Origin: Candidatus Levyibacteriota bacterium
GTDB lineage: Bacteria > Patescibacteriota > Microgenomatia > Levybacterales > UBA12049
Direction: 5' to 3'
Length of the DNA: 64,000 nt
Assembly: GCA_016182235.1 (NCBI GenBank)
Contig: JACOXT010000003.1
Coordinates: 2,209-66,208, forward strand
The notes beneath the pieces are model-generated. The model had not been told where the DNA came from and did no database searches. It worked only from the letters and a program-made list of their open reading frames with translations. Positions 2,892-48,039 of this stretch are shown here, piece by piece. The position numbers were made by a program, and so were the translations under genes. How positions within the stretch are numbered: position 1 is the stretch's first letter; each line of letters starts with the position of its first letter.

Positions 2892-3623
2892 ATGGAGATT
2901 TTATTTTTTGTAGCAGCTTTTTTATCCGAAATTGTTGGGACAGTTGCTGGTTTTGGTTCTTCAACAATATTTTTGCCCCTCGCATTAATCTTTTTTGACT
3001 TTAAGACCGCGTTAGTCCTCGTAGCATTACTTCATATTTTCGGTAATATCGGAAGGATTAGCTTTTTTAGACATGGATTGGATAAGAAAACTCTTTTAGT
3101 TTTTGGCATTCCAAGTATTGTTATGACGCTCATAGGGGCATTGTTAGTGGCATATGTTCAACAAGATGTATTAAAAGGTATATTGGGAGTATTTTTAGTT
3201 ATCTATGCCGGGGTTTTCTTTTGGAAGGAAGACTTCAAAGTAAAGCCGACATTATTTAGTTCTATAACAGGCGGAGGATTATCTGGTTTTCTTGCTGGTC
3301 TTATAGGGACAGGTGGAGCTTTACGAGGAGCATTTTTGACAGGTTTTGGATTATCCAAAGAAAGATATATCGCAACAGCTGCCACTATAGCCTTGATGGT
3401 AGACATAACTAGAATTCCTGTTTACTTCGCGCAAGGCTTCTTGGAAAGTGAATATTACTGGTTTATTCCATTACTTTTAGTTATTGCTTTCTTGGGCTCA
3501 TTTACAGGAAAGCAGATAGTAAAACGTGTTCCTCAAAACAAGTTTAAAAAAATCGTTTTGTTGGCAATATTATTGATAGGCTTGAAGTTTATTTATGATT
3601 GGATCTGGGGGTTGATGTTATAA
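2892..3623 (+). CDS. TauE/SafE-family anion exporter-like membrane protein
   Basis: 243 aa, about 7-8 TM helices, with duplicated Gly-rich helices (VAGFGSSTIFLPLAL; GLIGTGGALRGAFL). Confidence 0.55.
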   Translation: MEILFFVAAFLSEIVGTVAGFGSSTIFLPLALIFFDFKTALVLVALLHIFGNIGRISFFRHGLDKKTLLVFGIPSIVMTLIGALLVAYVQQDVLKGILGVFLVIYAGVFFWKEDFKVKPTLFSSITGGGLSGFLAGLIGTGGALRGAFLTGFGLSKERYIATAATIALMVDITRIPVYFAQGFLESEYYWFIPLLLVIAFLGSFTGKQIVKRVPQNKFKKIVLLAILLIGLKFIYDWIWGLML

Positions 3624-3630
3624 TGAATTT

Positions 3631-4950
3631 ATGATTGAAAAACAGGATGAGTTGTCAGGACAGCAAAGGCAGTCTGAGTCTCATGTACTAAAAATTAGTA
3701 CATGGAAGAAAATCTTGTCAAAGAGGATTGTTGTCTTTGCTGCTTTTCCCATGGTATTGCTTTTTCTCGTTGTTGTTTTAATGATATTAACATCCTCGCC
3801 TTCATCTACAAATCAAAACCAAACGGATCACTCTAGGTATAGTCAGGGTAAAGCCGGTCTATTCGGGCAACAATGTGAAGGTAAAGGCTATAATAAATTA
3901 AGTACATTTCCTCTTGATCCTGAGGAGATTGAGTTGATTGTTCCCATGGGGAGAGTGCAGGATTCGCATGTTACGCCAACAGATCATCAATATATTATCC
4001 CCAAAGAAACTAAAAGTGGATCTTTAGTAACAGACAATCCAAGAAAATACGATATAAAAGCTCCGGCAGATGGTTATATTATAAATATTGAGTTATTTAA
4101 AGAACCGGTTGAGGAGGCATATCGAAAAGATCCGTATCAGGAAAATTATCTGGTTGTATTTGAGCATTCTTGTGATTTTTACATCAGGCTTATTCACATC
4201 GATACCTTGTCAGAGAAAGTGCTCTCATCTTTTAAATTCAGTAATCCTCAAGATCAGCATCCTTCTGCGCAAACCAGAATTCCGGTTAAAGAAGGGGAAG
4301 TTATCGGGACTGTTGGCCCTCACTCTTTTGATTTCCAGATTATGGATACCATGCTTAAGAACAAAGATATTATAAGTCCGCAAAACATAGATTTTTTTAG
4401 CTCGTATACTGTTGATACGTTTGACTATCTATCTGAACCTCTAAGAAGCGAGCTTCTTAAGAAAAATTTAAGGGAAAAAGAGCCTTTTGGTGGGAAAATT
4501 GGTTATGATAAAGAAGGAACTCTTCTTGGAAATTGGTTTAGAGTAGGAAGAGACAAAAACAATAGGGAAGCATATTGGACGAATAATATAAGCATTGTTT
4601 ATGATCATATTGATGAAAGTCAGATTAGGATATCGTTTGGCAATTTTGACGGGTATCCCAAAGCTTACGCTGTCCGCGGCAACACGCCGGATCCCGCGAC
4701 AATAGACAAAAACGCTGGTTTAGTCAAATATGAACTGGTACAGTTTGATTATTTTGATGAAAAAGGCAACCGTTGGGACCAAATCCATTTTGCCCAAAAA
4801 TTAACTGCCAAAAATACAGAAGAAAGAAGGGGCGTAGTCCTATTTGAAATTCAGGATGACGGAGCACTTAAAGTTGAAGCTTTTCCGAAAGCAACAAGCG
4901 CAGAACAAGTCCCCGGATTTACCTCAAATGCCAAGATTTACGAAAGATAA
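3631..4950 (+). CDS. Hypothetical membrane-anchored exported protein
   Basis: Long ORF with an N-terminal TM anchor (VVFAAFPMVLLFLVVVLMIL). I recognise no family. Confidence 0.5.
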   Translation: MIEKQDELSGQQRQSESHVLKISTWKKILSKRIVVFAAFPMVLLFLVVVLMILTSSPSSTNQNQTDHSRYSQGKAGLFGQQCEGKGYNKLSTFPLDPEEIELIVPMGRVQDSHVTPTDHQYIIPKETKSGSLVTDNPRKYDIKAPADGYIINIELFKEPVEEAYRKDPYQENYLVVFEHSCDFYIRLIHIDTLSEKVLSSFKFSNPQDQHPSAQTRIPVKEGEVIGTVGPHSFDFQIMDTMLKNKDIISPQNIDFFSSYTVDTFDYLSEPLRSELLKKNLREKEPFGGKIGYDKEGTLLGNWFRVGRDKNNREAYWTNNISIVYDHIDESQIRISFGNFDGYPKAYAVRGNTPDPATIDKNAGLVKYELVQFDYFDEKGNRWDQIHFAQKLTAKNTEERRGVVLFEIQDDGALKVEAFPKATSAEQVPGFTSNAKIYER

Positions 4951-21544: not shown

Positions 21545-21573
21545 TTGACAAGCTATTCGAAAAAGATTAATCT
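21545..21573 (+). promoter_or_regulatory. Sigma70-type promoter (TTGACA-N17-TAATCT) for the TasA-like/vWA gene
   Basis: ttgaca at 21545-21550 and taatct at 21568-21573. The ORF-track 'start' at 21545 is the TTG of this -35 box. Confidence 0.45.
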
Positions 21574-21625
21574 GATTGCGGCATCAACAAGAAGTACCCG
21601 GGCAGGAATCAAAAAGATTTTTAAG

Positions 21626-23038
21626 ATGTCAAAAGCAATCAATACTCGGATAATACTTTCCTTTGTAACACTGCTTTTAGCGGCTTCTGTTATAATCGGC
21701 GGAACTATAGCCTTCTTCTCCGACACCGAAACATCGAAAGAAAATGAAATCGCGGCAGGAGCAATAGATCTTAAGATTGATAACACAAGCTATCTCAACC
21801 ACGCCACGTCTTCGGCAACCACATGGGAGCTTAAAGATCTTACCCCAAACGACTTATTTTTTAACTTTACCGATATAAAACCAGGCGATGAGGGCGAAGA
21901 TACCATAAGCATTCATGTTGATGATAATGACGCGTGGGCGTGCATGGATATGACGCTTACCAAAGATGATGATGTTGACTGTACAGAGCCTGAACTTCTC
22001 GATGATCCAACGTGTTCAGAAAATGATGACTTAAATGATGGAGAACTTGGGGGCTTACTTAGTTTTCTTTTCTGGACGGATGACGGAGACAATGTATTTG
22101 AGACTCACGAATCCGTTATTGCGTCAGGATCGGCGTCGAGTGTTTTGGATAGCAATATTGTTTTGGCAGACGCGGTTACAAACAATGTCGGCGGCCTTCC
22201 TGGAAATCCTTTGACTGGAGGTCAGACATACTATATTGGCAAAGCGTGGTGTTTTGGCACGCTTACTCAAAATCCAGTTGCCGACAATAATGGAATAAGT
22301 CCTATTGTTGATTCAGGAGTACTCTGCGATGGGTCACTCTTGGACAATGCTTCGCAGACAGATTCGGTTATGGGAGACATAAGTTTTAGCGCGGTGCAAT
22401 ACAGAAATAACCCAAGCTTTACTTGCGATGGGACAGAGCCCTCAATTACTCCAACCCCTACACTTACAGCCTGTTTACAGGCAGATGTGATGCTTGTCTT
22501 GGACCGCTCCGGCAGTATCAATTCGGGAGAGCTAGGACAGCTTAAAACCGCGGCAAAAGATTTTGTTGACGCTTTAGGGCTTACCCCACTTGGTATCCAT
22601 GCAGGGCAAACAAGCTTTGCGACAAACGGCAGTCTTGACCATATTCTGAGTTCCAATTCGGTGACTCTTAAGGCGGCAATAGACGCTCTTGTCTCAGGCG
22701 GATTCACAAATCTAAAATCAGGCATTGATTTGGCAACAGGAGAGCTAGCGGGAGTTAACGATAGAGCGGACATAACATCTCCTGACAAGATGATAATTAT
22801 TACAGACGGACATCCAAATAGACCGTTTCCTTCAGCCACCGCTCCTGTCGCGGCAAAATCTTCAGCAGATATAGCAAAGCTGGCAGGAACTGAGATATTT
22901 GTAGTCGGAGTCGGAAGCGATGTCAATACTTCCTATCTGGAGGATGACATCGCGAGTCCCGGACCCGGACATTATTTCCCGGTTAGCGATTACTCGGATC
23001 TGGAAACAGCTTTAGAAAACCTAGACATTTGCGAATAA
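21626..23038 (+). CDS. TasA/camelysin-family N-terminal domain fused to von Willebrand factor A domain, SipW-cognate signal peptide
   Basis: The signal is MSKAINTRIILSFVTLLLAASVIIGGTIAFFSDTETS..AAGAIDL. Blocks are shared with the 23491 paralogue (DIKPGDEGEDTIS, WTDDGDNVFE, YYIGKAWCFG, TQTDS..DISFSAVQYRNN). The C-terminal vWA domain has the MIDAS motif DVMLVLDRSGSI and ITDGHPN. Confidence 0.75.
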   Translation: MSKAINTRIILSFVTLLLAASVIIGGTIAFFSDTETSKENEIAAGAIDLKIDNTSYLNHATSSATTWELKDLTPNDLFFNFTDIKPGDEGEDTISIHVDDNDAWACMDMTLTKDDDVDCTEPELLDDPTCSENDDLNDGELGGLLSFLFWTDDGDNVFETHESVIASGSASSVLDSNIVLADAVTNNVGGLPGNPLTGGQTYYIGKAWCFGTLTQNPVADNNGISPIVDSGVLCDGSLLDNASQTDSVMGDISFSAVQYRNNPSFTCDGTEPSITPTPTLTACLQADVMLVLDRSGSINSGELGQLKTAAKDFVDALGLTPLGIHAGQTSFATNGSLDHILSSNSVTLKAAIDALVSGGFTNLKSGIDLATGELAGVNDRADITSPDKMIIITDGHPNRPFPSATAPVAAKSSADIAKLAGTEIFVVGVGSDVNTSYLEDDIASPGPGHYFPVSDYSDLETALENLDICE

Positions 23039-23058
23039 ACAAGTAATAAGTATAAAGG

Positions 23059-23433
23059 ATGAAGTATGAAGTTAAACCGGAAGATATTAGACAAAGAACA
23101 TTTAAATTTGGACTTAGAATAATCGCACTTTGTAAAGAATTACCAAGAAACGAAGTTAATAGGATTTTAATAAACCAAGTGTTAAGATCCGGGACATCAA
23201 TCGGAGCGAATTTGGAAGAGGCAACAGGCGCGCATACTAAATCGGAGTTTATTAATTGTACGAATATTGCAAGAAGAGAGGCGCGGGAAACGCATTATTG
23301 GCTGAAGTTGATTTATGAAATAAGTAATCAAATGATTAAAAATAAGATGAAAGATTTGATAAATGAGTCTAACGAAATCGTAAGTATACTTGTCGTTTCA
23401 GTTAAAAATTTGCAAAGAAATAACAAAAAGTGA
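23059..23433 (+). CDS. Four-helix-bundle protein (23S rRNA intervening-sequence protein family)
   Basis: 124 aa. RTFKFGLRII...NQVLRSGTSIGANLEEA......EFI....IARREARETHYWL is the family signature. Confidence 0.75.
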   Translation: MKYEVKPEDIRQRTFKFGLRIIALCKELPRNEVNRILINQVLRSGTSIGANLEEATGAHTKSEFINCTNIARREARETHYWLKLIYEISNQMIKNKMKDLINESNEIVSILVVSVKNLQRNNKK

Positions 23434-23437
23434 AAAA

Positions 23438-23472
23438 TTCATACTTCGAAGTTCATAATTCGAAGTTCTGAG
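23438..23472. repeat. Degenerate heptamer array (ttcatac ttcgaag ttcataa ttcgaag ttctgag)
   Basis: Five 7-nt units with constant TTC, ending 19 nt before the 23491 ATG. It is related to the array at 41728-41755. Confidence 0.7.
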
Positions 23473-23490
23473 AAGGGGGGTGATAAAATT

Positions 23491-24402
23491 ATGTTACAGG
23501 CAATTAATACAAAAGTTTTACTAAGCGCAGTAACCATACTCGCGGCAGCAGCAATTGCAATCGGCGCGACATTCGCTTTCTTTAGCGACACCGAAACATC
23601 AACAGGCAATGTCCTAGCCGCCGGCGCAATTGATCTGAAGGTTGACAACACATGTTACTACAACGGTAACGCTTGTGTTCATGGTGAATTTGAAGGTACA
23701 GACACGCGATGTTCTTGTACTTGGGAACCGACTGATCTATCTGAAGAGCATTTGTTCTTTGACCTTTCTGATATTAAACCAGGAGATTGGGAAGAAGATA
23801 CTATTAGCTTGGCAGTCGAGAATAACGAAGCTTGGCTTTGTGCTGATGTTACGCTTACGAGCGATGATGACAATAGCATCACAGAACCAGAAGCAGAAGA
23901 TGGAGACCCTGATACCGCACCAGGAATTGGACTAGGTGAGTTAGCAGACGCTGTTAACTTCTACTGGTGGGCTGATGATGGAGACAATGTCTTCGAGTGT
24001 GTAATGGAACAAACATCTGAAGGCTTAGTGTGTAATCCAGACGCAGAAGGCTCAGAACATCTTTTACCAGCAGGTCCCATGGGGAACCTTGATGTAGACG
24101 AAACAGCAACAGTTGCCCTAGCTGATTCTGATGAAAATATCTGGGGATTACCAGGACCTATTCCTCAAGGAGGGGAAACTTTTTATATCGGTAAGGCCTG
24201 GTGTTTTGGAGACTCGGATATGACTCCTTATCCTCAGGGTGAGCAGAGTGGTCCTGATGAAAGACCAGTAACGTGTGATGGTTCTGATGTGAATAATATT
24301 ACTCAGACCGATAGCTTCACAGCTGATATAGCATTCAGAGCTGTTCAGGCAAGGAACAATGATGAGTTCCAATGTGAGGTTCCAACACCAACCCCATCAT
24401 AA
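23491..24402 (+). CDS. TasA/camelysin-family secreted protein with SipW-cognate signal peptide
   Basis: MLQAINTKVLLSAVTILAAAAIAIGATFAFFSDTETS..AAGAIDLKVDN. It is a paralogue of the N-terminal half of the 21626 gene. The SD is GAAGGGGGGTGAT. Confidence 0.75.
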   Translation: MLQAINTKVLLSAVTILAAAAIAIGATFAFFSDTETSTGNVLAAGAIDLKVDNTCYYNGNACVHGEFEGTDTRCSCTWEPTDLSEEHLFFDLSDIKPGDWEEDTISLAVENNEAWLCADVTLTSDDDNSITEPEAEDGDPDTAPGIGLGELADAVNFYWWADDGDNVFECVMEQTSEGLVCNPDAEGSEHLLPAGPMGNLDVDETATVALADSDENIWGLPGPIPQGGETFYIGKAWCFGDSDMTPYPQGEQSGPDERPVTCDGSDVNNITQTDSFTADIAFRAVQARNNDEFQCEVPTPTPS

Positions 24403-24486
24403 TTTAATCAGTGGTTGGTTTTAGAACAAAGGGAGGTTGCTGAAGTACAAAGCGCCTCCCCGGGACCCTGCGAGAGGTGAAGTTTG

Positions 24487-24575
24487 AATTGCGAAGTGCG
24501 AATTATGAAATCCAAAGAACTTCCGTATACCTCATAGCTCATACTTCATAATTCATAATTCATAATTCATAATTC
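24487..24575. repeat. Heptamer arrays upstream of sipW (aattgcg aagtgcg aattatg ... catagct catactt cataatt x4)
   Basis: 24487-24507 and 24533-24575. The two halves are partly reverse-complementary (gaattatgaa versus ttcataattc). The last unit ends 7 nt before the ATG at 24582. Confidence 0.7.
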
Positions 24576-24581
24576 TTTTCT

Positions 24582-25916
24582 ATGCGTACGATATTCAAAT
24601 GGATAAATATCCTTCTTTCGGTTGGGATTTTTTTTGTAGCATTGGGAGTGCTCTATGTTGCCATTCCGTATTTTGGCAATCAGGCTTTAGTAGTCCGTTC
24701 GGGATCAATGAGTCCAGCAATTGACGCCGGTTCAATTGTTGTTGTCCGCGCGGGCCGGGATTTCATTTCCCCAATTGCTTCTGCTCCTATATACAACACA
24801 GGCGATATTATTGCTTTCCGCTCTGATAAAAATCAAAATACCATCATAACTCACAGAATTGTCGGTACCAAGGCAGAAGCATCCGGCGTTGTTTACAAGA
24901 CAAAAGGAGACGCGAACAAAGACGTTGATGGTTGGGTAGTCAAAGAAGAAAATGTTTTGGGAAAAGCTTCTTTTAATTTACCGCAGTTTGGATATGTTTT
25001 GGCTTTTGCGAGATCAAATTTAGGATTTCCGCTTCTTATTATAGTGCCAGCTTTATTTGTGATCTTGTTGGAGCTTTATAATATTACTAAGACTATAAGA
25101 GAGGCAACAAGTGTAAAAAAGATAAAAATTGTAAGAGAGATAAGAAGCCATCTGCATCATCCGCTTCACCTATCAGGAATTAAGACTTTTGTTCCGATTC
25201 TCTTGATTGGTTTGGCAATCCCAATCGCTTTCGCGTTTCCAAGCGATACGGAAACAAGTTCCAACAATGTCTTTACCGCCGCGGAGGATTTTTTTGTAGA
25301 TTCATCTACAACTCCAACCCCACCGCCTCCTCCGACCGCGTTTGGAATCGCGGATCATATCGTGATCAGCGAGGTACAGATTGCCACTTCCGGCGCAACC
25401 ACTAGTGATTTTGTTGAACTTTATAATCCTACATCTTCCAGTATCAATTTAAGTGGATTCCATTTAGTAAAACGCACATCAACAGGAACTTCTTCTGCAA
25501 ATCTGAAAGCATTTTCTTCCTCTGATATTATTCCAGCTCACGGTTTTTATTTGTGGGCTAGTACAGACGGAGGGTATGCCACGCAAATTGGGGCAGATGT
25601 AAGTACAGGAGAAAACATTACAAGCAATAACAGCGTTGCCCTTTTAGATTCTTCCGATGTAATAGTTGATGCTGTTGCTTGGGGAAGTGGCCATACAGCT
25701 CCTCTTATTGAGGGAAGCGCTTTTTCAATAAATCCTGGTGCAAATCAAAGCATGGAAAGAAAAGCATTGTCAACATCAACAGTTGCTACAATGGATATTG
25801 GAGGCGCGGATGAGTTTAAGGGAAACGGTTTTGACTTGGATGATAATTCAACAGATTTTATTCTAAGAACTCTTTCTCAGCCGCAGAATAGCGGAAGTTT
25901 GATAGAAATGCCCTAA
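24582..25916 (+). CDS. sipW: SipW-type (ER/archaeal-type S26B) signal peptidase I fused to a lamin-tail domain
   Basis: The peptidase boxes are VRSGSMSPAI, IITHRIV and KGDANKDVD, followed by a C-terminal TM helix. After that come a second TM helix, AFAFPSDTETSSNNVFTA (nt 25242-25259 = SDTETS) and a Pro/Thr linker. The LTD pattern is IVISEVQ...SDFVELYNPTSSSINLSGFHL...NNSVALLDSSDVIVDAVAWG. Confidence 0.8.
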   Translation: MRTIFKWINILLSVGIFFVALGVLYVAIPYFGNQALVVRSGSMSPAIDAGSIVVVRAGRDFISPIASAPIYNTGDIIAFRSDKNQNTIITHRIVGTKAEASGVVYKTKGDANKDVDGWVVKEENVLGKASFNLPQFGYVLAFARSNLGFPLLIIVPALFVILLELYNITKTIREATSVKKIKIVREIRSHLHHPLHLSGIKTFVPILLIGLAIPIAFAFPSDTETSSNNVFTAAEDFFVDSSTTPTPPPPPTAFGIADHIVISEVQIATSGATTSDFVELYNPTSSSINLSGFHLVKRTSTGTSSANLKAFSSSDIIPAHGFYLWASTDGGYATQIGADVSTGENITSNNSVALLDSSDVIVDAVAWGSGHTAPLIEGSAFSINPGANQSMERKALSTSTVATMDIGGADEFKGNGFDLDDNSTDFILRTLSQPQNSGSLIEMP

Positions 25917-25917
25917 T

Positions 25918-26272
25918 GTCATTCTGGGGAGTTCCGCTTAGCGGGACGACTCCAGAATCAGAGAAATATGAAGCAAATGTTTGTTTATATTATGGCAAAT
26001 CATAGGCCCACTCTATATACAGGCGTGACAAACAATCTGATCAAGAGAGTTTGGCAGCATAAGCAAGAATTGATTGAGGGTTTTACGAAAAAATACCATT
26101 TACATAAGCTTGTTTATTACGAAACTGTAGAAGGAGAATTACAAGCGATTGTTAGAGAAAAACAAATAAAGGATATGAATAGACAAAGCAAACTGAAAAT
26201 GATTTGGAAGTTCAATCCAGACACGCATGATTTATATGAATCAATTTCGGATTCTGGACAAGCCAGAATGAC
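25918..26272 (+). mobile_element. GIY-YIG gene cassette bounded by 10-bp terminal inverted repeats and terminal hairpins
   Basis: gtcattctgg at 25918-25927 and ccagaatgac at 26263-26272 are exact reverse complements. Each end folds on ATTCTGG/CCAGAAT stems (25921-25958 and 26251-26269). A 77-bp derivative lies at 42536-42612. Confidence 0.7.
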
Positions 26273-26276
26273 ATAG
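25968..26276 (+). CDS. GIY-YIG nuclease family protein
   Basis: FVYIMANHRPTLYTGVTNNLIKRVWQHK.....GFTKKY.LHKLVYYE.......AI.REKQIK is the GIY-YIG/UPF0213-type signature. The last 4 codons lie in the right TIR. Confidence 0.8.
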   Translation: MKQMFVYIMANHRPTLYTGVTNNLIKRVWQHKQELIEGFTKKYHLHKLVYYETVEGELQAIVREKQIKDMNRQSKLKMIWKFNPDTHDLYESISDSGQARMT

Positions 26277-26284
26277 GGAAAAAT

Positions 26285-27112
26285 ATGAAAAAGTTAGTCA
26301 GAATTTTAGTTTTGCTTCTTGTCATAGGTTTACTACTTAGGTTTTCAGGCGTGGAGCTTTTTAGGCCTTCGACAGTTCGCGCTGTTGGAAATTTGGTTGT
26401 TGATTTTCATGTTCCGGAAGGGGATCCTATTTTTACTGTTAACGACTTCAAGCCCTGCGACGTTGAAGAACGTACGGTTGATATTACGAATAATTACGAC
26501 GAGCCTAAGCAAATTAGCATTATTGGAGTAAATACAGAAGAAACAGGAGAAATAGCAAATGTTATCCAGTTTGCAATCTCAAACGGCAGCGCCGATATTT
26601 ACGGCGGGGCAACGGGCACAAAAACCCTAAAAGATTTTTTTGAAGACTCTGAGGATCCTTCGGGAGTTGTTTTGGCAATCCTAGATCAAAATCAGTCTCA
26701 AAATTTTTTCTTTACAGCTACTTTTGAGTGCGATAGCGGAAATGAATTTCAGGAGAAAAAAGTGGTCTTTGATCTTAGAATTGGTGTTTTAGTTGACTTT
26801 GGAGAATGTCCTGATGTTGAAGGGACTATAAAGGTATATTATCCTGAAGGTTGGCACGCGATTGTCGGGATGGACGAAAATCAGTATGGGGCAGACAAGG
26901 TATTTGATATAGGAGGAAATAATTTTGTTCAGTGTTATTTCCCGCCATCTGGCAACGAAGGAATCCAGACAAATTGGCTGGCAGCCGCGGATTTTATAGA
27001 GTCGCAAATTAGTGAGTTTATTGCCGATGGATGGACTTTTATCACCAATGGATTCGACTGGGGTTTGCCAATTCAAGAATATCTCGCCAAAAACTTCCTC
27101 TTTACGTTCTAA
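26285..27112 (+). CDS. Exported protein, probable third TasA/camelysin-fold paralogue with extra C-terminal domain
   Basis: It has a signal anchor, FTVNDFKPCDVEERTVDITNN, and GNEFQEKKVVFDLRIG, which resembles the camelysin/TasA C-terminal strand motif. The assignment is weaker than for the other two paralogues. Confidence 0.45.
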   Translation: MKKLVRILVLLLVIGLLLRFSGVELFRPSTVRAVGNLVVDFHVPEGDPIFTVNDFKPCDVEERTVDITNNYDEPKQISIIGVNTEETGEIANVIQFAISNGSADIYGGATGTKTLKDFFEDSEDPSGVVLAILDQNQSQNFFFTATFECDSGNEFQEKKVVFDLRIGVLVDFGECPDVEGTIKVYYPEGWHAIVGMDENQYGADKVFDIGGNNFVQCYFPPSGNEGIQTNWLAAADFIESQISEFIADGWTFITNGFDWGLPIQEYLAKNFLFTF

Positions 27113-28700: not shown

Positions 28701-28794
28701 AATTTGAAATTTTCAATTTTTAATGAATTTTTAATATTTAAAATTTAAATTTTCATTTCAAATTTCGAATTTTAAATTGAAAATTATAGTTTAC
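28701..28794. repeat. AT-rich heptamer-periodic array filling the whole intergenic space
   Basis: aatttga aattttc aattttt aatgaat ttttaat atttaaa atttaaa ttttcat ttcaaat ttcgaat tttaaat tgaaaat. It is related to the arrays at 46500-46548 and 53007-53086. Confidence 0.7.
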
Positions 28795-34836: not shown

Positions 34837-35130
34837 ATGCTCCTTTCAATCTTTAAGATTTCCGGCCACAGTATGGAACCTGCGATTAGAGATGGTCAGA
34901 ATGTTTTTGTAAGTGGCATTTCTTACTTATTTTCTAAGCCAAAAGCTGGAGACATAGTAGCTTTTAGAAAGAATGAAAAAGTATTTGTAAAAAGAATTGC
35001 TAAAATTAATAATGATAATTATTTCGTAAGAGGAGATAATAGGGAAGACAGTCTGGATAGTAGGAAAATTGGGTGGATAAATAGAAAAGAAATTTTAGGG
35101 AAAGTAATTTTCAAAATTTCTAATTACTAA
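34837..35130 (+). CDS. sodX: NiSOD maturation protease (S26-like)
   Basis: 97 aa with SGHSMEPAI, VFVKRI and RGDNREDSLDSR. It lies immediately downstream of sodN. Confidence 0.7.
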   Translation: MLLSIFKISGHSMEPAIRDGQNVFVSGISYLFSKPKAGDIVAFRKNEKVFVKRIAKINNDNYFVRGDNREDSLDSRKIGWINRKEILGKVIFKISNY

Positions 35131-35204
35131 TTCCTAATTGACCTAACCAAATCCCAATTCCAAAATTCTTAGAAATTAGATCAATTAGGTTAATTAGGTC
35201 AATT
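35120..35204. repeat. Heptamer-periodic array with internal inverted repeat
   Basis: ctaatta ctaattc ctaattg ... ttagaaa ttagatc aattagg ttaatta. aattgacctaa (35136-35146) is the reverse complement of ttaggtcaatt (35194-35204). The array spans the sodX stop and reaches to 10 nt before the next ATG. Confidence 0.65.
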
Positions 35205-41020: not shown

Positions 41021-42007
41021 TTATCTAATGGAGTTTTTCATCTTCAGTAAGAACCAGCGGAGCTTGTCGACTATTTTATAAATTTCGTAGAAAAAGGGAT
41101 CGATGACAAGATCATAACTTCCGACAAACTCAACGAGTTCTCCTCCGTAGCCTTGTTTAAATCTATGAAATCCATACCACGGATCTTTAGGATCGGGATT
41201 TGGGCCAAGTGCGCCCCACATATCTAATTTTTTAAGTCCTAATTTTTTTCCAAAACGAATTGTTTCCCACATCATTAGGTTTGACGCCATTGTTTCGCGG
41301 TGTTCAGTGCTAGATGCGCCATAAGGATAGTAAAGAGTATCTTTGTAGACGAATACTATCCAGGCGACTAGAGTTTTTCCTTGATAGTTTGCAAGTAATA
41401 AATGTGAGGATAGTTGATTTATGATTAATGATTTATGATTAATGATTTTATGGGGAAAGGAGCTCCAGTGCAGCCTATGGTAGTTTTCGGTGTGGGCATA
41501 AAAACCCTGTCTTTTGGTTGTTTCTTGAGTAAGTTTGAGATAAGTTTCAAAAGCCTCATCAGAATTATCTTCGACAACTATAACTTTATGTTTTTGGGCA
41601 ACTTTTATATTGTAACGAGTCTTGGGGTGCATGTTTTTGAGTAATTCATCTTCTGATTTTGTCAGATCGAGGACGAAAGTATACTTGGTGAATAATGGAT
41701 GAAAAGAATTGCGAATTGCGAATTGCGAATTAAGTTCATAGTTCTGAGTTCTTTGGACATTTGGTTCAAGCTGGATGAAAATACATTTTTCTATTTTTCC
41801 AATCTCTTTAAGCTTGGAGAGCATTTCTTTAGTTGGCAATGGCCCTTTTGGTATATACCCAATAGTAAAAGGAGTATGAGGAATTTTATGGATAGTTATT
41901 AGTAAGTCATTTTCTCTTATTACTTTAACGCCTGTTTTTTTGCGAAACTCACCCCATTCTACAGACTGGAGAGGATGCACGGAAAGGTTGTTTGTATTCA
42001 TAACCAT
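41021..42007 (-). CDS. FemAB-family peptidoglycan bridge-formation aminoacyltransferase
   Basis: HPLQSVEWGEFRKKTG and GFHRFKQGYGG are present. It contains two heptamer-repeat segments (41414-41448 and 41707-41755). Confidence 0.7.
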   Translation of the reverse strand: MVMNTNNLSVHPLQSVEWGEFRKKTGVKVIRENDLLITIHKIPHTPFTIGYIPKGPLPTKEMLSKLKEIGKIEKCIFIQLEPNVQRTQNYELNSQFAIRNSFHPLFTKYTFVLDLTKSEDELLKNMHPKTRYNIKVAQKHKVIVVEDNSDEAFETYLKLTQETTKRQGFYAHTENYHRLHWSSFPHKIINHKSLIINQLSSHLLLANYQGKTLVAWIVFVYKDTLYYPYGASSTEHRETMASNLMMWETIRFGKKLGLKKLDMWGALGPNPDPKDPWYGFHRFKQGYGGELVEFVGSYDLVIDPFFYEIYKIVDKLRWFLLKMKNSIR

Positions 42008-43908
42008 TCTGATATTTTGCCTTCTGTCCTATTAAATGGTTTGAGATTTTGGCTTAAGACATTTTCTGGAAGCTCTAACAAAAAGCGAGAAACCGTATTG
42101 GATATTTTTTGGCCAAAAAATAGTCTTCTTGTGGCGTATGTTAAGAAAAGTTTTTGTTTGGCGCGAGTCATGCCAACATAACAAAGCCTTCTTTCTTCCT
42201 CGAGTTCATTTTTATCCATAAGAGATCTTGAGTGCGGAAAAAGTCCTTCTTCCATGCCAATCATAAATACATACGAGAATTCAAGCCCTTTTGCCGCATG
42301 AAGAGTCATTAAAGTTACAGCATTTTTTTTAAGCTCGCCGTTGGGTTTATCTGGCATATATTCCTGCTCAACTAATGAGACATTTTCCAAAAACTTCGTA
42401 AGATCGGAAAAATTAAGAGCAACGGAGCGAAGCTCTTTTATATTCTCAAGCCTTTGCCTCTCTTCCTCATCCTTTTCGTCATACATGGTAAGATAATCAG
42501 TTTCTTTTATCACTCTGTCCAAAAGTTCTAAAGTCGTCATTCTGGCTTGCCCAGAAGCTCCAATCGTTTTAAGAGATTCTGGATGCACTCGTTTCTCGCT
42601 TACCAGAATGACGCCTTGTTGAAATTCAAGAAATTTTTGTAGACGTCTTTTTCCCAATTTCTCAATCCTTTTTAAAGAAATTTTGTCTTTTTTGTTACTT
42701 AAGACTCTGAGAAACGCGAGTATATCTTTGATCTCTTTTCTTTCATAAAATCTTGTCCCGCCAATAAGAACATAAGGAATGCTATTATGCAGGAGGATTT
42801 CCTCTAAAACCCTTGATTGAGCATTGGTTCTATATAGTATTGAGATATCGGAGAGATTTAAATTATGATTAAGATTTAAGATTTGGTTTATAATATATTC
42901 GACTTCATCCTGCTCATTTCTTGCCTCATAAATTTCTACATCCTCGCCATGAGAATTCTCTGTCCAAAGTTTTAAGACCGGATGAGTTGTATTTTTGGAT
43001 ATCACTGAGGAGGCAGCATCTAGAATGTTTTGTGTTGAGCGATAATTTTGAGAAAGAGAAAATGTTTTTGTATTTTTGAAGTCGTCTTTAAATTTATTGA
43101 GATTGGTAAAATCTGCGCCGCGCCAGGAATAAATGCTTTGAGAAAAATCTCCAACGACACAGATATTATTCCATTTTTTTGCCAATAATTTTGTCAAAGC
43201 ATATTGCGCATGGTTAGTGTCTTGGTACTCATCGATAAGAATATATCTAAATTTGTTTTGGTATTTATCCAATACTTCACTGTATTTTTCAAAAAGATAG
43301 ACTGTTTTTAGCAGCAAATCATCAAAGTCAAGCGCGTGATTTTCCGCTAAAATTTTTTGATAGACTGGATAGACTTTGGCGACTTTTTCTTGAAAGTTAC
43401 CTCTGGCAAAACTTAAATACATAGAATCCGTTATAAGTTCGTTTTTCGCTTGCGATATGCTGACCAGGATAGATGATGGCTTGTAATCTTTTGTAGAGAT
43501 GTTGAGTATTTTCATAGCTTCTTTTATTGCGTCTAACTGATCTTGGGTATCGTATATCGTAAAATCCGAAGATATGCCAATATATTTACCATCAATCCTT
43601 AGTATTTTTGCGCAAAGAGAATGAAAAGTGGATATAGTTGGCTGTTGACTATTGGTTGTTAGTCGTTGGCTGTTGACTAGATATTTTTGGACGCGTTCTT
43701 TCATTTCCGAAGCCGCTTTATTCGTAAATGTGACCATAAGAATATTAAAAGGGTCTATATGTTTCTCTAAAATTAGATACATAACTTTGTATGTAAGAAC
43801 CCTTGTTTTGCCGGAACCTGCGCCAGCTAAAATTATATTTGGTCCCTCTGTTTGCAAAACCGCAAGTTTCTGCTCGGAATTTAAGTCCTTGAAGATATCT
43901 TTGTTCAT
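41998..43908 (-). CDS. pcrA: ATP-dependent DNA helicase PcrA/UvrD family
   Basis: LNSEQKLAV....GPNIILAGAGSGKTRVLT, TFTNKAA.EMKERV, TFHS, LIDEYQDTN, QNYRS and LMTLHAAKGLEF...VGMTRA are present. I prefer the start MNKDIF (43908) over the track start at 43944. Confidence 0.85.
   Translation of the reverse strand: MNKDIFKDLNSEQKLAVLQTEGPNIILAGAGSGKTRVLTYKVMYLILEKHIDPFNILMVTFTNKAASEMKERVQKYLVNSQRLTTNSQQPTISTFHSLCAKILRIDGKYIGISSDFTIYDTQDQLDAIKEAMKILNISTKDYKPSSILVSISQAKNELITDSMYLSFARGNFQEKVAKVYPVYQKILAENHALDFDDLLLKTVYLFEKYSEVLDKYQNKFRYILIDEYQDTNHAQYALTKLLAKKWNNICVVGDFSQSIYSWRGADFTNLNKFKDDFKNTKTFSLSQNYRSTQNILDAASSVISKNTTHPVLKLWTENSHGEDVEIYEARNEQDEVEYIINQILNLNHNLNLSDISILYRTNAQSRVLEEILLHNSIPYVLIGGTRFYERKEIKDILAFLRVLSNKKDKISLKRIEKLGKRRLQKFLEFQQGVILVSEKRVHPESLKTIGASGQARMTTLELLDRVIKETDYLTMYDEKDEEERQRLENIKELRSVALNFSDLTKFLENVSLVEQEYMPDKPNGELKKNAVTLMTLHAAKGLEFSYVFMIGMEEGLFPHSRSLMDKNELEEERRLCYVGMTRAKQKLFLTYATRRLFFGQKISNTVSRFLLELPENVLSQNLKPFNRTEGKISEWL
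42536..42612 (-). mobile_element. 77-bp gene-less derivative (MITE-like) of the GIY-YIG cassette, in frame within pcrA
   Basis: It has the same 10-bp TIRs (gtcattctgg 42536-42545, ccagaatgac 42603-42612) and the same internal ccagaatc / ttctggRcaagccagaat hairpin arms as 25918-26272. It is read through as VILVSEKRVHPESLKTIGASGQARMT. Confidence 0.7.
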
Positions 43909-45765: not shown

Positions 45766-48039
45766 TTAGTTGATTTTATAGATTTTTGTTTGATCACTTG
45801 AATAGACTATCTGCCCAAGTTTACTAAATTTTTCTTCAGAAAGAGTATATTTTTGTTTTTCTAGATCACCCACAAAAACTAAAGAAATCTTATATTTATC
45901 AATCAGTTTTTTTGCGATTTGCGAATCAACTGTTTCATAGAGAGTTTGAACTTCTTCGATTCTTGGCGATGGAATATCATAAGTTCCTCGCCAAAGCCAT
46001 TCATGGACGGACCATCCTAAAACTGTCGGAAGTCCAGTGTTTGTGGATACTCTGCCATAATCCGTATAAGAGTCACCTTGAGCTTCGAGAATTACGGGCT
46101 GTCCTTTGATATTTTTGTTTATCCATAAAATTGCTTCATAATCAGTTGGATACAGCGATTTAAGATATTTTGTTCCGTCAAGTCCGTGATAGGTTTTTAA
46201 ATCTCCAAAATAAGAATTGATTGCAAAGTAAGGATACACAAATACCAGAAATAATCCAATACTACCAATAACCCAATAAACAAATTTCCAATGAATAAAT
46301 TTACGATTTACGAATAGACGAATGATAGTATAACCAGAGGATAAAGAAAGCATAATAAAGGCTTGGTATACGAGTTTAAACATGGTATTTGCCCGGTAAT
46401 GTGCAGGGTAAATGTCCTTTACGTATATGAATTCTGGAATGATAATAAGAAGAGTGGAGAAAAATATGAGGACTGAAATGAATAAGCCAGATGGGCTTAA
46501 ATTTTCAATTTTGAATTTGAAATTTTTAATGAAATTTAAACAATTAAAACTCTTAAGTTTTTGAATTTTATTTTTGAAATTGAAACGAAGGAGTATAAAT
46601 ACAATCGCCCAAAAGTAAAAAAATCCATAAAGAATAAATAACTGCCAAATGGGCGAACGCTGACAATGATCTTTTTCGAAAAGAAAAGGACCAAGTCTTT
46701 CGATTTTTGTTAAGAATTCAGGTGCGCATAAAATGCCGATTCCGGAAGCAAAGGGCTTGAAGTTTAGATTAAATGGAAGAGAGAATAGAAAGAAACCAAA
46801 AACCAAAAACAAAATACTTAATACATAATATTTAATGCGCTTTGGATTTGAAGAATTGGTTGTGGATCTTAATTGAACAGTAAAGATTACAATTGCAGTA
46901 AGTAAAAGATAAATAAGTCCGTCCCATGCATTGGTCATGTACATGATTGCTAGAATGAATCCTAGCAATAAAATCCTAAATCCAAAATTAGAAATTCTAA
47001 ATAAATTCAAATAACCAAAACTATAATTATCAAAACGTTTTGAGCTTTGAAAATTTGAGCTTATTTGTGATTTGTGATTTGTGATTTGTGATTTTAAAAC
47101 TAGTGATAAAAGTATTGTTATGGTAAGTAGAACAAAAGGTATATCAAGTACGTGTCCATGTAAATCAGATACAACAAAGGAATATATTGGGAATTCATGA
47201 ATAGTATTTTCAATAAAACGAGTAGCATTAGGGTACCAGTAAGAATTTGGGAATTTATCTAGGGAGAATATTAATTGCCAGAATGGTACCGGCGATTCGT
47301 TTTCATAGGGCTTAAAAAAAGTGTAGACAGAGTGGAGATTGCCAGCAAAGGTAATTAGAAGCGCAGATAATAGACCTCCAATGAAAACTCTAAATCCGAG
47401 TTTCGATTTTAATAAAAATATTAAATTAGCTCCGATTGAAAATGCGCCTGCGAATGTAAATCCCGATATTGCAGCAAGCATAAGATTATATGTAATATTT
47501 GGTGGAAGGCTGGATAACTTAGTTAATACTGCTGTTGTCAAATGTCCAAAATAGTAGTAATTAATATATAGAGGCGTTAGCCACATGTCGGAAGGAGGGA
47601 AATACTCACTTCGCAGGATTGAATTTATAAAGCCAAAGTCCATATATTTTTCAAGACCATGAATATCGGGTCCATGGGCGTGAATATAAGACCAAAATAT
47701 TAGAACTGACAAAAAGATAATTTCTTCAAAGACAAATATCCTGAAAAAATACCCTAAAGATTTTATGAGATTAGAATATTTGAATACTAGGAAAATGTTT
47801 AAGATTAAGAATCCAACAATGGTTAATAAAATAGTAAGTACAGTAAAAGGTTGGATTCTCAAGATGCCTAAGATGAAAATTACATAACTGAGAAGGGCAA
47901 TACCTATTATTTTTGAAAATATATATCCCCTATCGGAGAGTGAATGAAATATTATACCTGTTAAGGGGAGAAAAATAATGCCAATAATAAAAATAATTAA
48001 CCACCATTGAAATATGTACAGCAAATCGGAAAAAGGCAT
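45766..48039 (-). CDS. DUF2298 / 'YYY' GT-C-like polytopic membrane protein
   Basis: GLEKYMDFGFINSILRSEYFPPSDMWL...INYYYFGH is the DUF2298 signature as I remember it. 757 aa. It carries three heptamer-repeat segments. Confidence 0.65.
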   Translation of the reverse strand: MPFSDLLYIFQWWLIIFIIGIIFLPLTGIIFHSLSDRGYIFSKIIGIALLSYVIFILGILRIQPFTVLTILLTIVGFLILNIFLVFKYSNLIKSLGYFFRIFVFEEIIFLSVLIFWSYIHAHGPDIHGLEKYMDFGFINSILRSEYFPPSDMWLTPLYINYYYFGHLTTAVLTKLSSLPPNITYNLMLAAISGFTFAGAFSIGANLIFLLKSKLGFRVFIGGLLSALLITFAGNLHSVYTFFKPYENESPVPFWQLIFSLDKFPNSYWYPNATRFIENTIHEFPIYSFVVSDLHGHVLDIPFVLLTITILLSLVLKSQITNHKSQISSNFQSSKRFDNYSFGYLNLFRISNFGFRILLLGFILAIMYMTNAWDGLIYLLLTAIVIFTVQLRSTTNSSNPKRIKYYVLSILFLVFGFFLFSLPFNLNFKPFASGIGILCAPEFLTKIERLGPFLFEKDHCQRSPIWQLFILYGFFYFWAIVFILLRFNFKNKIQKLKSFNCLNFIKNFKFKIENLSPSGLFISVLIFFSTLLIIIPEFIYVKDIYPAHYRANTMFKLVYQAFIMLSLSSGYTIIRLFVNRKFIHWKFVYWVIGSIGLFLVFVYPYFAINSYFGDLKTYHGLDGTKYLKSLYPTDYEAILWINKNIKGQPVILEAQGDSYTDYGRVSTNTGLPTVLGWSVHEWLWRGTYDIPSPRIEEVQTLYETVDSQIAKKLIDKYKISLVFVGDLEKQKYTLSEEKFSKLGQIVYSSDQTKIYKIN

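Follow-up and report, generated by a model that had tools for sequence, protein, structure and literature searches.

Inverted heptamer arrays around four-helix-bundle genes and at a tasA-sipW-type locus of a Levyibacteriota bacterium

Tandem repeats with a unit of seven nucleotides have been known in cyanobacteria since 1990 and were later found in Xanthomonas and Beggiatoaceae; to our knowledge, there is no agreed function or origin for them, and the only explanation offered for the number seven has been polymerase slippage. The short tandemly repeated repetitive (STRR) heptanucleotides of heterocystous cyanobacteria, reportedly described by Mazel and colleagues in 1990, have served for fingerprinting and were regarded as intergenic repeats without a known function. 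The four-helix-bundle (4HB) proteins, named after the 23S rRNA intervening sequences, are among the commonest small orphan families in Cyanobacteria, Bacteroidota, bacteria of the Candidate Phyla Radiation (CPR) and others, and are related to the Avd protein of diversity-generating retroelements, which is a pentamer. Such proteins (Pfam PF05635) are said to be encoded by the 23S rRNA intervening sequences that Ralph and McClelland described in 1993 from Leptospira, Coxiella and others, and we know of no description of heptamer periodicity in the stems of these sequences. Here, we analyzed the heptamer arrays in a stretch of 64,000 nucleotides from a Candidatus Levyibacteriota bacterium (GenBank assembly GCA_016182235.1, contig JACOXT010000003.1, positions 2,209 to 66,208 of the forward strand; G+C content 35.7%), hereafter called the window. 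One pair of inverted arrays forms the ends of a cassette carrying a 4HB gene, a second pair, without an open reading frame (ORF), lies in the leader of a sipW-like gene, and a third copy lies in frame in a tolerant loop of a FemAB gene. A 4HB gene between inverted heptamer arrays recurred in every phylum sampled, although the repeats of Bacteroidota were not cleanly 7-periodic.

The arrays described here resemble the STRR in that they consist of tandem 7-nucleotide (nt) units, with several unit sequences per genome, and are dispersed and lineage-specific; the cyanobacterial plasmid arrays fetched in this study are the same kind of object as the window arrays (~33 nt, in inverted pairs). On the other hand, the STRR were described, as far as we found, without a 4HB link or an inverted-pair architecture, and the arrays of Levybacteria are mostly in frame inside genes. 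Three STRR heptanucleotides have been given for Calothrix PCC 7601 (cited in PMC4692102). Heptanucleotides are also over-represented among the long simple sequence repeats (SSRs) of prokaryotes, which was explained by polymerase slippage, and units that are not multiples of three were expected to avoid coding regions (Mrazek et al., 2007, as relayed by PMC4692102 and PMC4679880). Our arrays share with that class a period-7-specific excess and variability between close relatives, but differ in capped length, inverted partners, gene association and in-frame location. In Xanthomonas, 70-75 cases of GGGAATC arrays are convergent (inverted) pairs in close proximity, mostly conserved in position, variable in length and of unknown function, and GGGGAYT arrays occur in Nostoc PCC 7120 (PMC4692102); these are G-rich, were read as quadruplex-forming and had no protein partner proposed, whereas the window units are AT-rich with AATT or GAAGT cores. 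TAACTGA direct repeats of two to six heptamer units were reported from marine Beggiatoaceae, some Cyanobacteria and some Bacteroidetes, where they mostly end ~1 nt 5' of start codons without a ribosome-binding site, and an unidentified post-transcriptional regulator was proposed (PMC4679880). Their placement is that of the CATAATT array at sipW described below, but they have one dominant unit sequence, are nearly all intergenic and include a single reported inverted pair. Heptamer over-representation, the slippage idea and convergent pairs are known already. In open-access literature we found no report linking PF05635, TIGR02436 or 4HB proteins with heptamer repeats and none of heptamer repeats in CPR/Patescibacteria (earlier subscription papers could have been missed).

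The 4HB cassette of the window is located between two TasA-like genes:

21545-23038, plus strand: gene for a protein with a camelysin-type signal and a VWA domain (Pfam)
23048-23073, plus strand: left (upstream) heptamer arm of the cassette, AAGTATA AAGGATG AAGTATG AAGTT, overlapping the 4HB start codon at 23059
23059-23433, plus strand: 4HB gene of 124 amino acids, the cargo of the cassette (Pfam 23S_rRNA_IVP PF05635, E 2.2e-20; NCBIfam TIGR02436, E 8.6e-27)
23438-23472, plus strand: right (downstream) arm, TTCATAC TTCGAAG TTCATAA TTCGAAG TTCTGAG, directly 3' of the 4HB stop codon
23491-24402, plus strand: gene for a TasA/camelysin-like secreted protein (Pfam Peptidase_M73, N-terminal region only), context and not the bracketed object

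The left arm is complementary to 23438-23451 of the right arm (common core GAAGTATGAA/TTCATACTTC), and the duplex of the two arms was computed at -13.6 kcal/mol. Both arms were 7-periodic by Tandem Repeats Finder (TRF), with 3.6 copies of period 7 at 23048-23072 and a 14-mer x2.2 with 94% matches at 23438-23468, and both were degenerate in comparison with the cyanobacterial copies. The right arm is also self-complementary locally (ACTTCGAA..TTCGAAGT, an 8-bp stem at 23443-23466), and it ends directly 5' of the Shine-Dalgarno sequence of the TasA-like gene. The solved structure closest to the 4HB protein is PDB 2RLD (E 1e-20), an entry with five chains. It had previously been proposed that the TasA-like gene is bracketed by inverted copies. 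However, the real pairs are 23048-23073 with 23438-23472, around the 4HB gene, and 24485-24508 with 24532-24555, 3' of the TasA-like gene; the 11-nt inverted match across the TasA-like gene is a by-product, because two neighbouring elements share one unit class. Orthologous cassettes with the same arm arrangement were found in L089, L131, L146 and other loci, and the 4HB gene was missing at this site in the relatives L093 and L086.

If a cassette is defined as a PF05635/TIGR02436 ORF with reverse-complementary flanks and 7-nt periodicity in both of them, all three features are present here. As in a 23S rRNA intervening sequence, the PF05635 ORF lies in the loop between complementary ends that could form a stem; however, those sequences interrupt the 23S rRNA gene and RNase III excises them, whereas the window cassette lies between protein-coding genes and not in a 23S rRNA gene helix. 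PF05635 has been recognized as Avd-like, and the family link has been mentioned (PMC10053308); with regard to a diversity-generating retroelement, no reverse transcriptase was found adjacent to the window gene, whose neighbours are the VWA-camelysin-like and TasA-like genes. The arrangement also resembles repetitive extragenic palindromes (REPs and their doublets, REPINs) with REP-associated tyrosine transposases (RAYTs), in which a small gene lies between inverted short repeats that are also dispersed as gene-less inverted pairs, but REPs have a conserved sequence and RAYTs belong to the HUH transposases (PMC3116915). For the 4HB protein we know of no catalytic activity, and in the arrays period and symmetry are better conserved than the sequence.

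To characterize the association more broadly, 26 4HB loci of CPR, Cyanobacteria, Chloroflexota, Spirochaetota and Bacteroidota were compared with 607 small genes as controls. An inverted-flank score of at least 10 was observed for all 26 4HB loci (median 15) versus 68 of the 607 controls (median 8), and a period-7 signal in both flanks for 13 of the 26 versus only one control gene. At least one flank was clearly 7-periodic in 21 of the 4HB loci. With a score of 10, the window cassette is the weakest of all. The four remaining 4HB genes of the CPR loci that were fetched had inverted heptamer-periodic flanks in which the unit varied by locus and the arms stayed complementary, and close homologues of the window protein (60-78% identity), again 5' of TasA-like genes, had GAAGT-type units upstream and ACTTC-type units downstream. 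A tblastn search of PLSDB plasmids with the window protein gave 31 records, mostly from Nostoc, Anabaena, Planktothrix and other cyanobacteria. The flanks of the 14 plasmid loci fetched were inverted heptamer arrays (less clean in two Bacteroidota), and the cyanobacterial arrays were often perfect, 31-34 nt long and in some cases abutted the start or stop codon (L126; the stop of L116 and L119). The units were (TAATTCG)x4.7 upstream and (AATTACG)x4.7 downstream in Nostoc (L116), (AATTCAA) and (AATTTTG) in L117, GATTTTA and TCTAAAA in L126, (ACTGGTC)x12.6 downstream in L128, CTCTCCG in Treponema (L124), and ATGAAGG upstream and TCATAAT downstream in Chlorohelix (L129), which has the window's own unit class. 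On a 50-kb plasmid of Nostoc flagelliforme, 11 arrays of period 7 and 10 of period 14 were counted, against 0-1 for other periods; both of its 4HB genes lie between perfect inverted arrays, and of two inverted pairs without a gene that it also carries, one forms a perfect stem of 34 bp.

The arrays were better conserved than the 4HB gene itself. Between Nostoc (L116) and Dolichospermum (L119), the coding sequences (CDS) share 76% nucleotide identity and the 33-nt downstream arrays are identical; the similarity stops exactly at the outer array end, beyond which the neighbouring genes differ. Between L116 and L130a (CDS 73% identity), a one-base unit change was present in every unit of both arms, and in general the heptamer unit class followed the 4HB protein lineage. 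Thus, the gene and its arms form an inherited or mobile unit, as the similarity of L116 and L119 ends at the array edge and the unit change is shared by both arms. The arrays are either more strongly constrained than the CDS or regenerated from one unit.

The periodicity of seven was not confined to the cassette. Chance levels for array periods 4-22 were obtained from order-3 Markov simulations of the window. Seven strong arrays of period 7 were observed (0.08 expected), together with six of period 14 (0.05 expected) and three of period 21 (0.05 expected); any other period gave 0-2. As the excess was limited to periods 7, 14 and 21, the periodicity is real and specific to seven, and chance is excluded. 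TRF also detected ~20 further period-7 arrays in the window besides those at the three loci that were first noticed. The strings quoted for these loci were all present: the right arm listed above, aattgcg aagtgcg aattatg at 24487-24507, and catagct catactt cataatt x4 at 24533-24575, ending 6-7 nt short of the ATG at 24582 (TRF on 24539-24575, period 7 x5.3, 96%), as well as the FemAB array on the forward strand, gaattgc x3.7 followed by aagttcatagttctgag at 41706-41755 (TRF on 41706-41731, period 7 x3.7, 100%). Their coordinates were also right, except that cgaattatgaa is at 24499-24509 and not, as had been given, at 24498-24508. Relatedness among the three arrays survived alignment statistics, with local alignment scores of 13.5-19.1 versus ~7 (s.d. 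1.2) for random window segments (P<0.001), and the exact decamers GAATTGCGAA and TTCATAATTC were nearly confined to these arrays. However, arrays from unrelated loci of other species aligned with equally good scores. The likeness is therefore one of a shared unit class (GAAKTNN/NNAMTTC), and common descent is not proven by it.

The second pair of the window lies in the spacer between the TasA-like gene and the sipW-like gene, which contains the following features:

24410-24462, plus strand: motif AGTGGTTGGTTtTAGAACAAAGGGAGG and a GGGAGG..CCTCCC hairpin (from the fold), 3' of the stop codon of the TasA-like gene, ancestral and outside the heptamer insert
24472-24479, plus strand: GAGAGGTG, the probable ancestral Shine-Dalgarno sequence of sipW according to the alignment, now ~100 nt from the ATG
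24485-24508, plus strand: left arm of the ORF-less inverted heptamer pair, tGAATTGC GAAGTGC GAATTATGA, pairing with 24532-24555
24532-24575, plus strand: right arm and extension, tCATAGCT CATACTT CATAATT x4, units one to three pairing with the left arm
24582-25916, plus strand: gene for a SipW-like signal peptidase with a lamin-tail domain (Pfam Peptidase_S26 and LTD), N-terminus homologous to that of relatives

The arms 24485-24508 and 24532-24555 form a 21-bp imperfect hairpin with a mismatch at about every seventh position (25 bp if the four outer pairs 24478-24481/24559-24562 are included). The RNA fold of 24478-24562 had an energy of -20.8 kcal/mol (z -3.6), and none of 200 shuffles was as stable. 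The element also matched itself on the opposite strand (nhmmer, E 0.0026). Given the hairpin pairing and this self-match, each spacer array is an inverted copy of the other. Three relatives with 46-58% identical proteins (L086, L091 and L093; at ~1830-1900 in L086 and ~735-790 in L091) have kept the motif AGTGGTTGG(T)TGAGAAC(A/G)AA and a G+C-rich hairpin; these may be an attenuator, terminator or processing site of the tasA-sipW transcript. In L086 and L091/L093, the proteins encoded on either side of the motif are 55-58% identical to those of the window. In L086 (SipW 55% identical), the motif and hairpin are followed by GAGGGT, 7 nt and the sipW ATG, with no insert, whereas in the window ~100 nt of heptamer arrays lie between GAGAGGTG and the homologous ATG, and L091 and L093 have a different insert that includes (TTTTGAC)x3. 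These ~100 nt are a lineage-specific insert, and GAGAGGTG is probably the old ribosome-binding site of sipW displaced by it; no Shine-Dalgarno sequence was found within 20 nt of the ATG. As to a miniature inverted-repeat transposable element or REPIN-type origin of 24485-24575, terminal inverted repeats with a hairpin are present, and many near-identical copies with defined ends were not found; the insert as a conserved mobile element was rejected, as nhmmer found nothing outside the arrays. No Rfam family was detected in 22800-24800, apart from chance-level snoRNA matches.

Five Logan contigs (L001-L005) from samples SRR12113420 and SRR12113430, four with the TasA-like gene and one with sipW, were all identical to the window sequence. 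The longest two with the TasA-like gene (L001 and L002) end within the CATAATT array and the sipW contig starts within it, with an overlap of only 25 nt; the other two end upstream, in adapter sequence. Therefore, they yield no unit counts, because they break in the CATAATT array or before it. Many contigs with close 4HB homologues were also just 0.6-3 kb long. Heptamer arrays appear to fragment k-mer assemblies, or may vary in length within populations.

The arrays of the FemAB and DUF2298 genes and other members of the period-7 class in the window were as follows:

41021-42007, minus strand: FemAB gene (Pfam)
41706-41755, minus strand: in-frame heptamer array, FemAB hot spot 1, coding strand AGAACTC AGAACTA TGAACTT AATTCGC x3 AATTCTT, encoding ..TQNYELNSQFAIRNS...
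41415-41447, minus strand: second in-frame FemAB array, hot spot 2, 14-mer TGATTTATGATTAA x2.4, encoding KIINHKSLIINQ
45766-48039, minus strand: DUF2298 gene (Pfam)
46960-47100, minus strand: composite of inverted arrays, in frame within the DUF2298 gene, CACAAAT x4.6 ... TNGGATT-type, encoding KSQITNHKSQI...NLFRISNFGFRI
46480-46600, minus strand: inverted arrays of TTAAATT and similar units, the second such insert of the DUF2298 gene, hairpin z -2.9
51746-51780, minus strand: in-gene array AAGTATA/AAGTATT x5 in a PMT_2 glycosyltransferase gene (TRF, Pfam)
28701-28785: intergenic cluster of AATTTTC-type heptamers with a long hairpin (TRF; fold -16.6 kcal/mol, z -2.6)
35115-35204: intergenic inverted arrays of AATTNCT units and their complements (TRF; fold z -2.9 on the plus strand and -4.1 on the minus strand)

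The FemAB protein was 100% identical to one from a metagenome-assembled genome of Candidatus Levybacteria. The first FemAB array, whose translation as ..NSQFAIRNS.. on the minus strand was borne out, indeed belongs to the same unit class as the tasA/sipW-locus arrays and differs from them by whole 7-nt units. In an alignment of 40 FemAB homologues, both arrays fall exactly in the two hypervariable spots, where other 7-residue-periodic peptides are found in relatives, namely KMENGKWKMEN from (AAAATGG)n, KSQKSKVKSQK from (AAAGTCA)n and ILNSQFSILNS from (AATTCTC)n. Hot spot 1 is flanked by the conserved motifs FIQLEPN and HPLF; its usual length is 60 nt, and it contains species-specific heptamers in ~30 relatives. 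Distant relatives have non-repetitive sequence there, and closer ones have AAATTTC, GGATTTC, AAATGGC, CGAAATT, AGTTCAC or ACGCAAA units in the same register. This pattern speaks for homogenisation at constant length over independent insertion. In distant DUF2298 orthologues the corresponding loops are short, and closer ones carry inserts of 30-50 amino acids made of an array, a spacer and a roughly inverted array; the DNA fold of the window composite (46960-47100) had a z of -3.2, with 1 of 200 shuffles as stable. A different dispersed palindromic element, in frame as ..HPE(F/L)(I/V)SGSP...MLKLVQHD..., was seen in place of heptamers in hot spot 1 of some Levybacteria (L008, L011; P0029, P0062, P0064).

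A survey of 80 FemAB-centred loci of Levybacteria genomes (1.36 Mb, a sample biased towards FemAB) gave the same picture of periodicity, with 170 arrays of period 7 versus 4 in simulations, 139 versus 1 for period 14 and 64 versus 0 for period 21, the remaining periods being at background; for these three periods, the enrichment is ~100-fold here as in the window. Array density fell with phylogenetic distance from the window lineage, with 2.6, 1.4, 0.3 and 0.7 arrays per 10 kb in successive quartiles. The units were diverse and AT-rich, mostly with AATT or AAAT cores. Array length peaked at 30-34 nt; numbers fell steeply above 34 nt, a length exceeded by just 11 of the 208 arrays, and usually no more than five units were present. 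An inverted partner within 150 nt was found for 31 of the 208, where ~3 were expected. Head-to-tail 7-nt units and a period-7-specific genome-wide excess place the arrays among the heptanucleotide tandem repeats (STRR or long SSR), but they are not mainly intergenic as those are: 182 of the 208 (87%) were inside ORFs in this FemAB-centred, biased sample, including 73 in DUF2298 orthologues and 54 in FemAB orthologues. All three frames were stop-free in 104 of the 182 on the coding strand, compared with 40 on the antisense strand. Among the species-representative genomes there were no close strain pairs; the nearest pairs were 83-86% identical, and their indels included whole-unit changes, for example 21 nt in an (AAAAATC)n array; alignments at this identity are too loose to prove stepwise slippage.

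On the basis of these results, we consider it probable that the arrays are a structured class of ~3-5 tandem heptamers (25-35 nt), often in stem-forming inverted pairs and tied to 4HB cassettes, which would be the CPR equivalent of the cyanobacterial STRR heptamers. Observed features of the class are its strict period of 7 nt, its inverted pairs with computed stem formation, its association with 4HB genes, the co-inheritance of gene and arms and the copying of unit changes to all units of both arms. As to the mechanism, the arms may pair in the transcript (or in single-stranded DNA) as do the ends of a 23S rRNA intervening sequence in its terminal stem. Such a stem could insulate the inserted gene, either through processing of the RNase III type or through stabilisation, and RNase III or the 4HB protein itself would act on it. 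Slippage or conversion in steps of 7 nt would keep the arrays uniform, and copies within genes would persist only where they are stop-free, preserve the frame and fall in permissive loops. Any effect on sipW, through the hairpin, the displaced ribosome-binding site or a promoter-like string, would then be a side-effect and not the purpose.

Several observations weigh against this reading. The 26 4HB loci are not independent, as eight are orthologues at one CPR locus and there are several further orthologous pairs, and the repeats of two Bacteroidota loci are not cleanly 7-periodic. In the window itself, the arms are degenerate, their duplex reaches just -13.6 kcal/mol, and neither the fold of the whole cassette (z -0.46) nor that of the FemAB hot-spot-1 array (z -0.37) was significant; sense and antisense fold energies also gave no consistent sign of an RNA-level over a DNA-level stem. 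We know of no catalytic domain in the 4HB protein. An nhmmer search of the window and 110 loci returned weak matches confined to arrays and no conserved dispersed element, a target-site duplication was not evident by eye at the outer array ends of L116 and L130, and no transposase was identified. Most importantly, jackhmmer found no 4HB gene near the 170 Levybacteria arrays (1.36 Mb). On this ground a purely cis relationship was rejected: the association has one direction, from 4HB genes towards arrays, and for the majority of arrays an explanation must be sought in trans or elsewhere. The protein may act in trans, or arrays made by general slippage may simply be used by 4HB cassettes.

The latter possibility leads to the view that the arrays are ordinary heptanucleotide SSRs, neutral products of replication slippage in a slippage-prone register whose loops escape mismatch repair, with selection as their sole filter and the 4HB link incidental, for instance because 4HB genes land in pre-existing hairpins. 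Heptanucleotides have been called the most abundant long SSR class in many bacteria and explained in this way (Mrazek et al., 2007, via PMC4692102 and PMC4679880), most Levybacteria arrays have no nearby 4HB gene, the units are AT-rich and diverse, whole-unit indels such as the 21-nt change in (AAAAATC)n separate related species, and different units in the same register and 60-nt length at FemAB hot spot 1 would fit turnover under frame constraint. However, slippage alone predicts neither the cap at ~34 nt without tailing off, nor the excess of inverted partners, nor the bracketing of 26 of 26 4HB genes, nor an array conserved at 100% beside a 76% identical CDS, nor a unit change in both arms. 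We consider this explanation rather unlikely.

Two functional alternatives appear less probable still. The arrays could be cis-regulatory DNA of the tasA-sipW operon, in which CATAAT units act as phased -10 hexamers, as had been suggested, or as regulator sites, and unit number tunes expression. A string TTCATA-N17-CATAAT (24545-24573) ends 8 nt before the sipW ATG and would start transcription at about this codon, giving a leaderless mRNA for a gene without a nearby ribosome-binding site; GTGAAA-N18-CATAAT (23430-23459) lies upstream of the TasA-like gene, several intergenic arrays of relatives end 1-16 nt before start codons, and the TAACTGA arrays of Beggiatoaceae are placed likewise (PMC4679880). 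Nevertheless, the phased -10 hexamers have a consensus match (24545-24573) and no more, the three promoter-like matches in the region do not outnumber the 4.2 +/- 2.4 of shuffles, in relatives this position is taken by an unrelated unit (TTTTGAC) or has no array, 182 of 208 arrays are within ORFs, and unit diversity is too great for one DNA-binding specificity. A promoter role of the arrays is unsupported, and regulation of this kind is improbable. The preliminary description was right about the relatedness of the arrays and the importance of their inversion, wrong about the bracketed object, and unsupported as to the promoters. The least probable alternative, to which we give very little credence, is that of contingency loci, in which gain or loss of one unit (7 not being a multiple of 3) would switch FemAB, DUF2298 and other genes by phase variation. 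It would agree with the presence of arrays in genes of envelope function, with the stop-free frames (104 of 182 on the coding strand versus 40 of 182 antisense) and perhaps with the ends of Logan contigs of two samples in the CATAATT array, which could mean length heterogeneity. But the FemAB and DUF2298 orthologues examined included no allele with a frameshift, the arrays are short, usually with five units at most, and shared k-mers also explain the contig breaks. An apparent frameshift of UvrD in L053 proved to be an assembly gap of Ns.

A further, more tentative proposal, which we regard as possible but doubtful, is that PF05635 proteins are the missing partner of heptamer repeats: a pentameric 4HB ring would bind one array (~5 units, ~33 nt) with one unit per subunit, and each 4HB lineage would recognize its own unit. 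The flanking arrays would then provide autoregulation and define the ends of a self-propagating cassette, and gene-less arrays, whether before start codons such as that of sipW or in tolerant gene loops, would come under the influence of the same protein. The nearest analogy is TRAP, which binds triplet repeats. Five subunits would match the ~4.7 units of 7 nt, which is no more than suggestive.

Some additional features of these loci were noted. At the site of the 4HB gene, L093 has a different 83-amino-acid ORF (3612-3881) that shares the initial ATGAAGTATG and follows TATGAAG TGCGAAC TATGAAG; it had no NCBIfam match, and its likeness to GIY-YIG proteins was judged by eye. Small selfish genes may have landed repeatedly at this site. 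The 4HB lineage of the window (60-78% identical) was found repeatedly directly 5' of a TasA/camelysin-like gene in CPR genomes (L131, L143, L146 and L089), and also between a HemolysinCabind protein and a 203-amino-acid gene (L134 and L142); this lineage may have been inserted long ago and inherited vertically since, or it may be functionally linked to the secreted-protein operon. The two TasA-like products of the window are paralogues, 46% identical over ~300 amino acids, the first with the C-terminal VWA domain, and their genes are followed by that for the SipW-like peptidase fused to the lamin-tail domain and by a conserved 275-amino-acid gene (26285-27112) without a Pfam match. This gene set is a CPR version of the tapA-sipW-tasA type of fibre locus. 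Between the latter two genes, a GIY-YIG gene (25968-26276) is bracketed by another inverted repeat, tgtcattctgg...ccagaatgaca (region 25917-26276), the right arm of which encodes the protein C-terminus ..SGQARMT. A second copy of this arm lies in frame in a UvrD-like helicase (42536-42552, minus strand; ..GASGQARMTT..), this same peptide fills FemAB hot spots of other Levybacteria (P0084, P0111, P0114 and L021), and the GIY-YIG gene is absent at this position in the relatives L093 and L091.

In other phyla, 4HB cassettes were seen in defence operons (plasmids of Nostoc sp. TCL26-01, L118, and Anabaena cylindrica, L120; also L122, L126, L129, L119 and L121). Some are located, on the opposite strand, between cas2 and cas1, and others between DUF1156 and a Swt1-family HEPN gene or beside helicase-related or N6-methylase genes. 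One Chloroflexota plasmid and one cyanobacterial plasmid have the order DUF1156-4HB-HEPN in common; their 4HB proteins are 69% identical, and both have the GATTTTA unit. On plasmid pNFSY06 (L130, 36595-37707), a sigma-70 family gene is annotated as three fragments, with a gene-less pair (AAATTCA)x4.7/(AATTTTG) between the second and third; it seems that a hairpin element was inserted into this gene.

The arrays insert in frame into conserved CPR proteins (FemAB, DUF2298) and appear to break short-read assemblies, which matters for annotation and binning. More generally, the puzzle of heptamer repeats and that of the 4HB family are tied together by the bracketing of every 4HB gene examined, by the conservation of the arrays and by unit changes shared by both arms, and the link could be tested with purified protein and a 35-nt oligonucleotide. 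If the binding of arrays by a 4HB pentamer were true, it would provide a function for a very abundant orphan family and would explain the period of seven, the cap at ~33 nt and the lineage distribution of the arrays.

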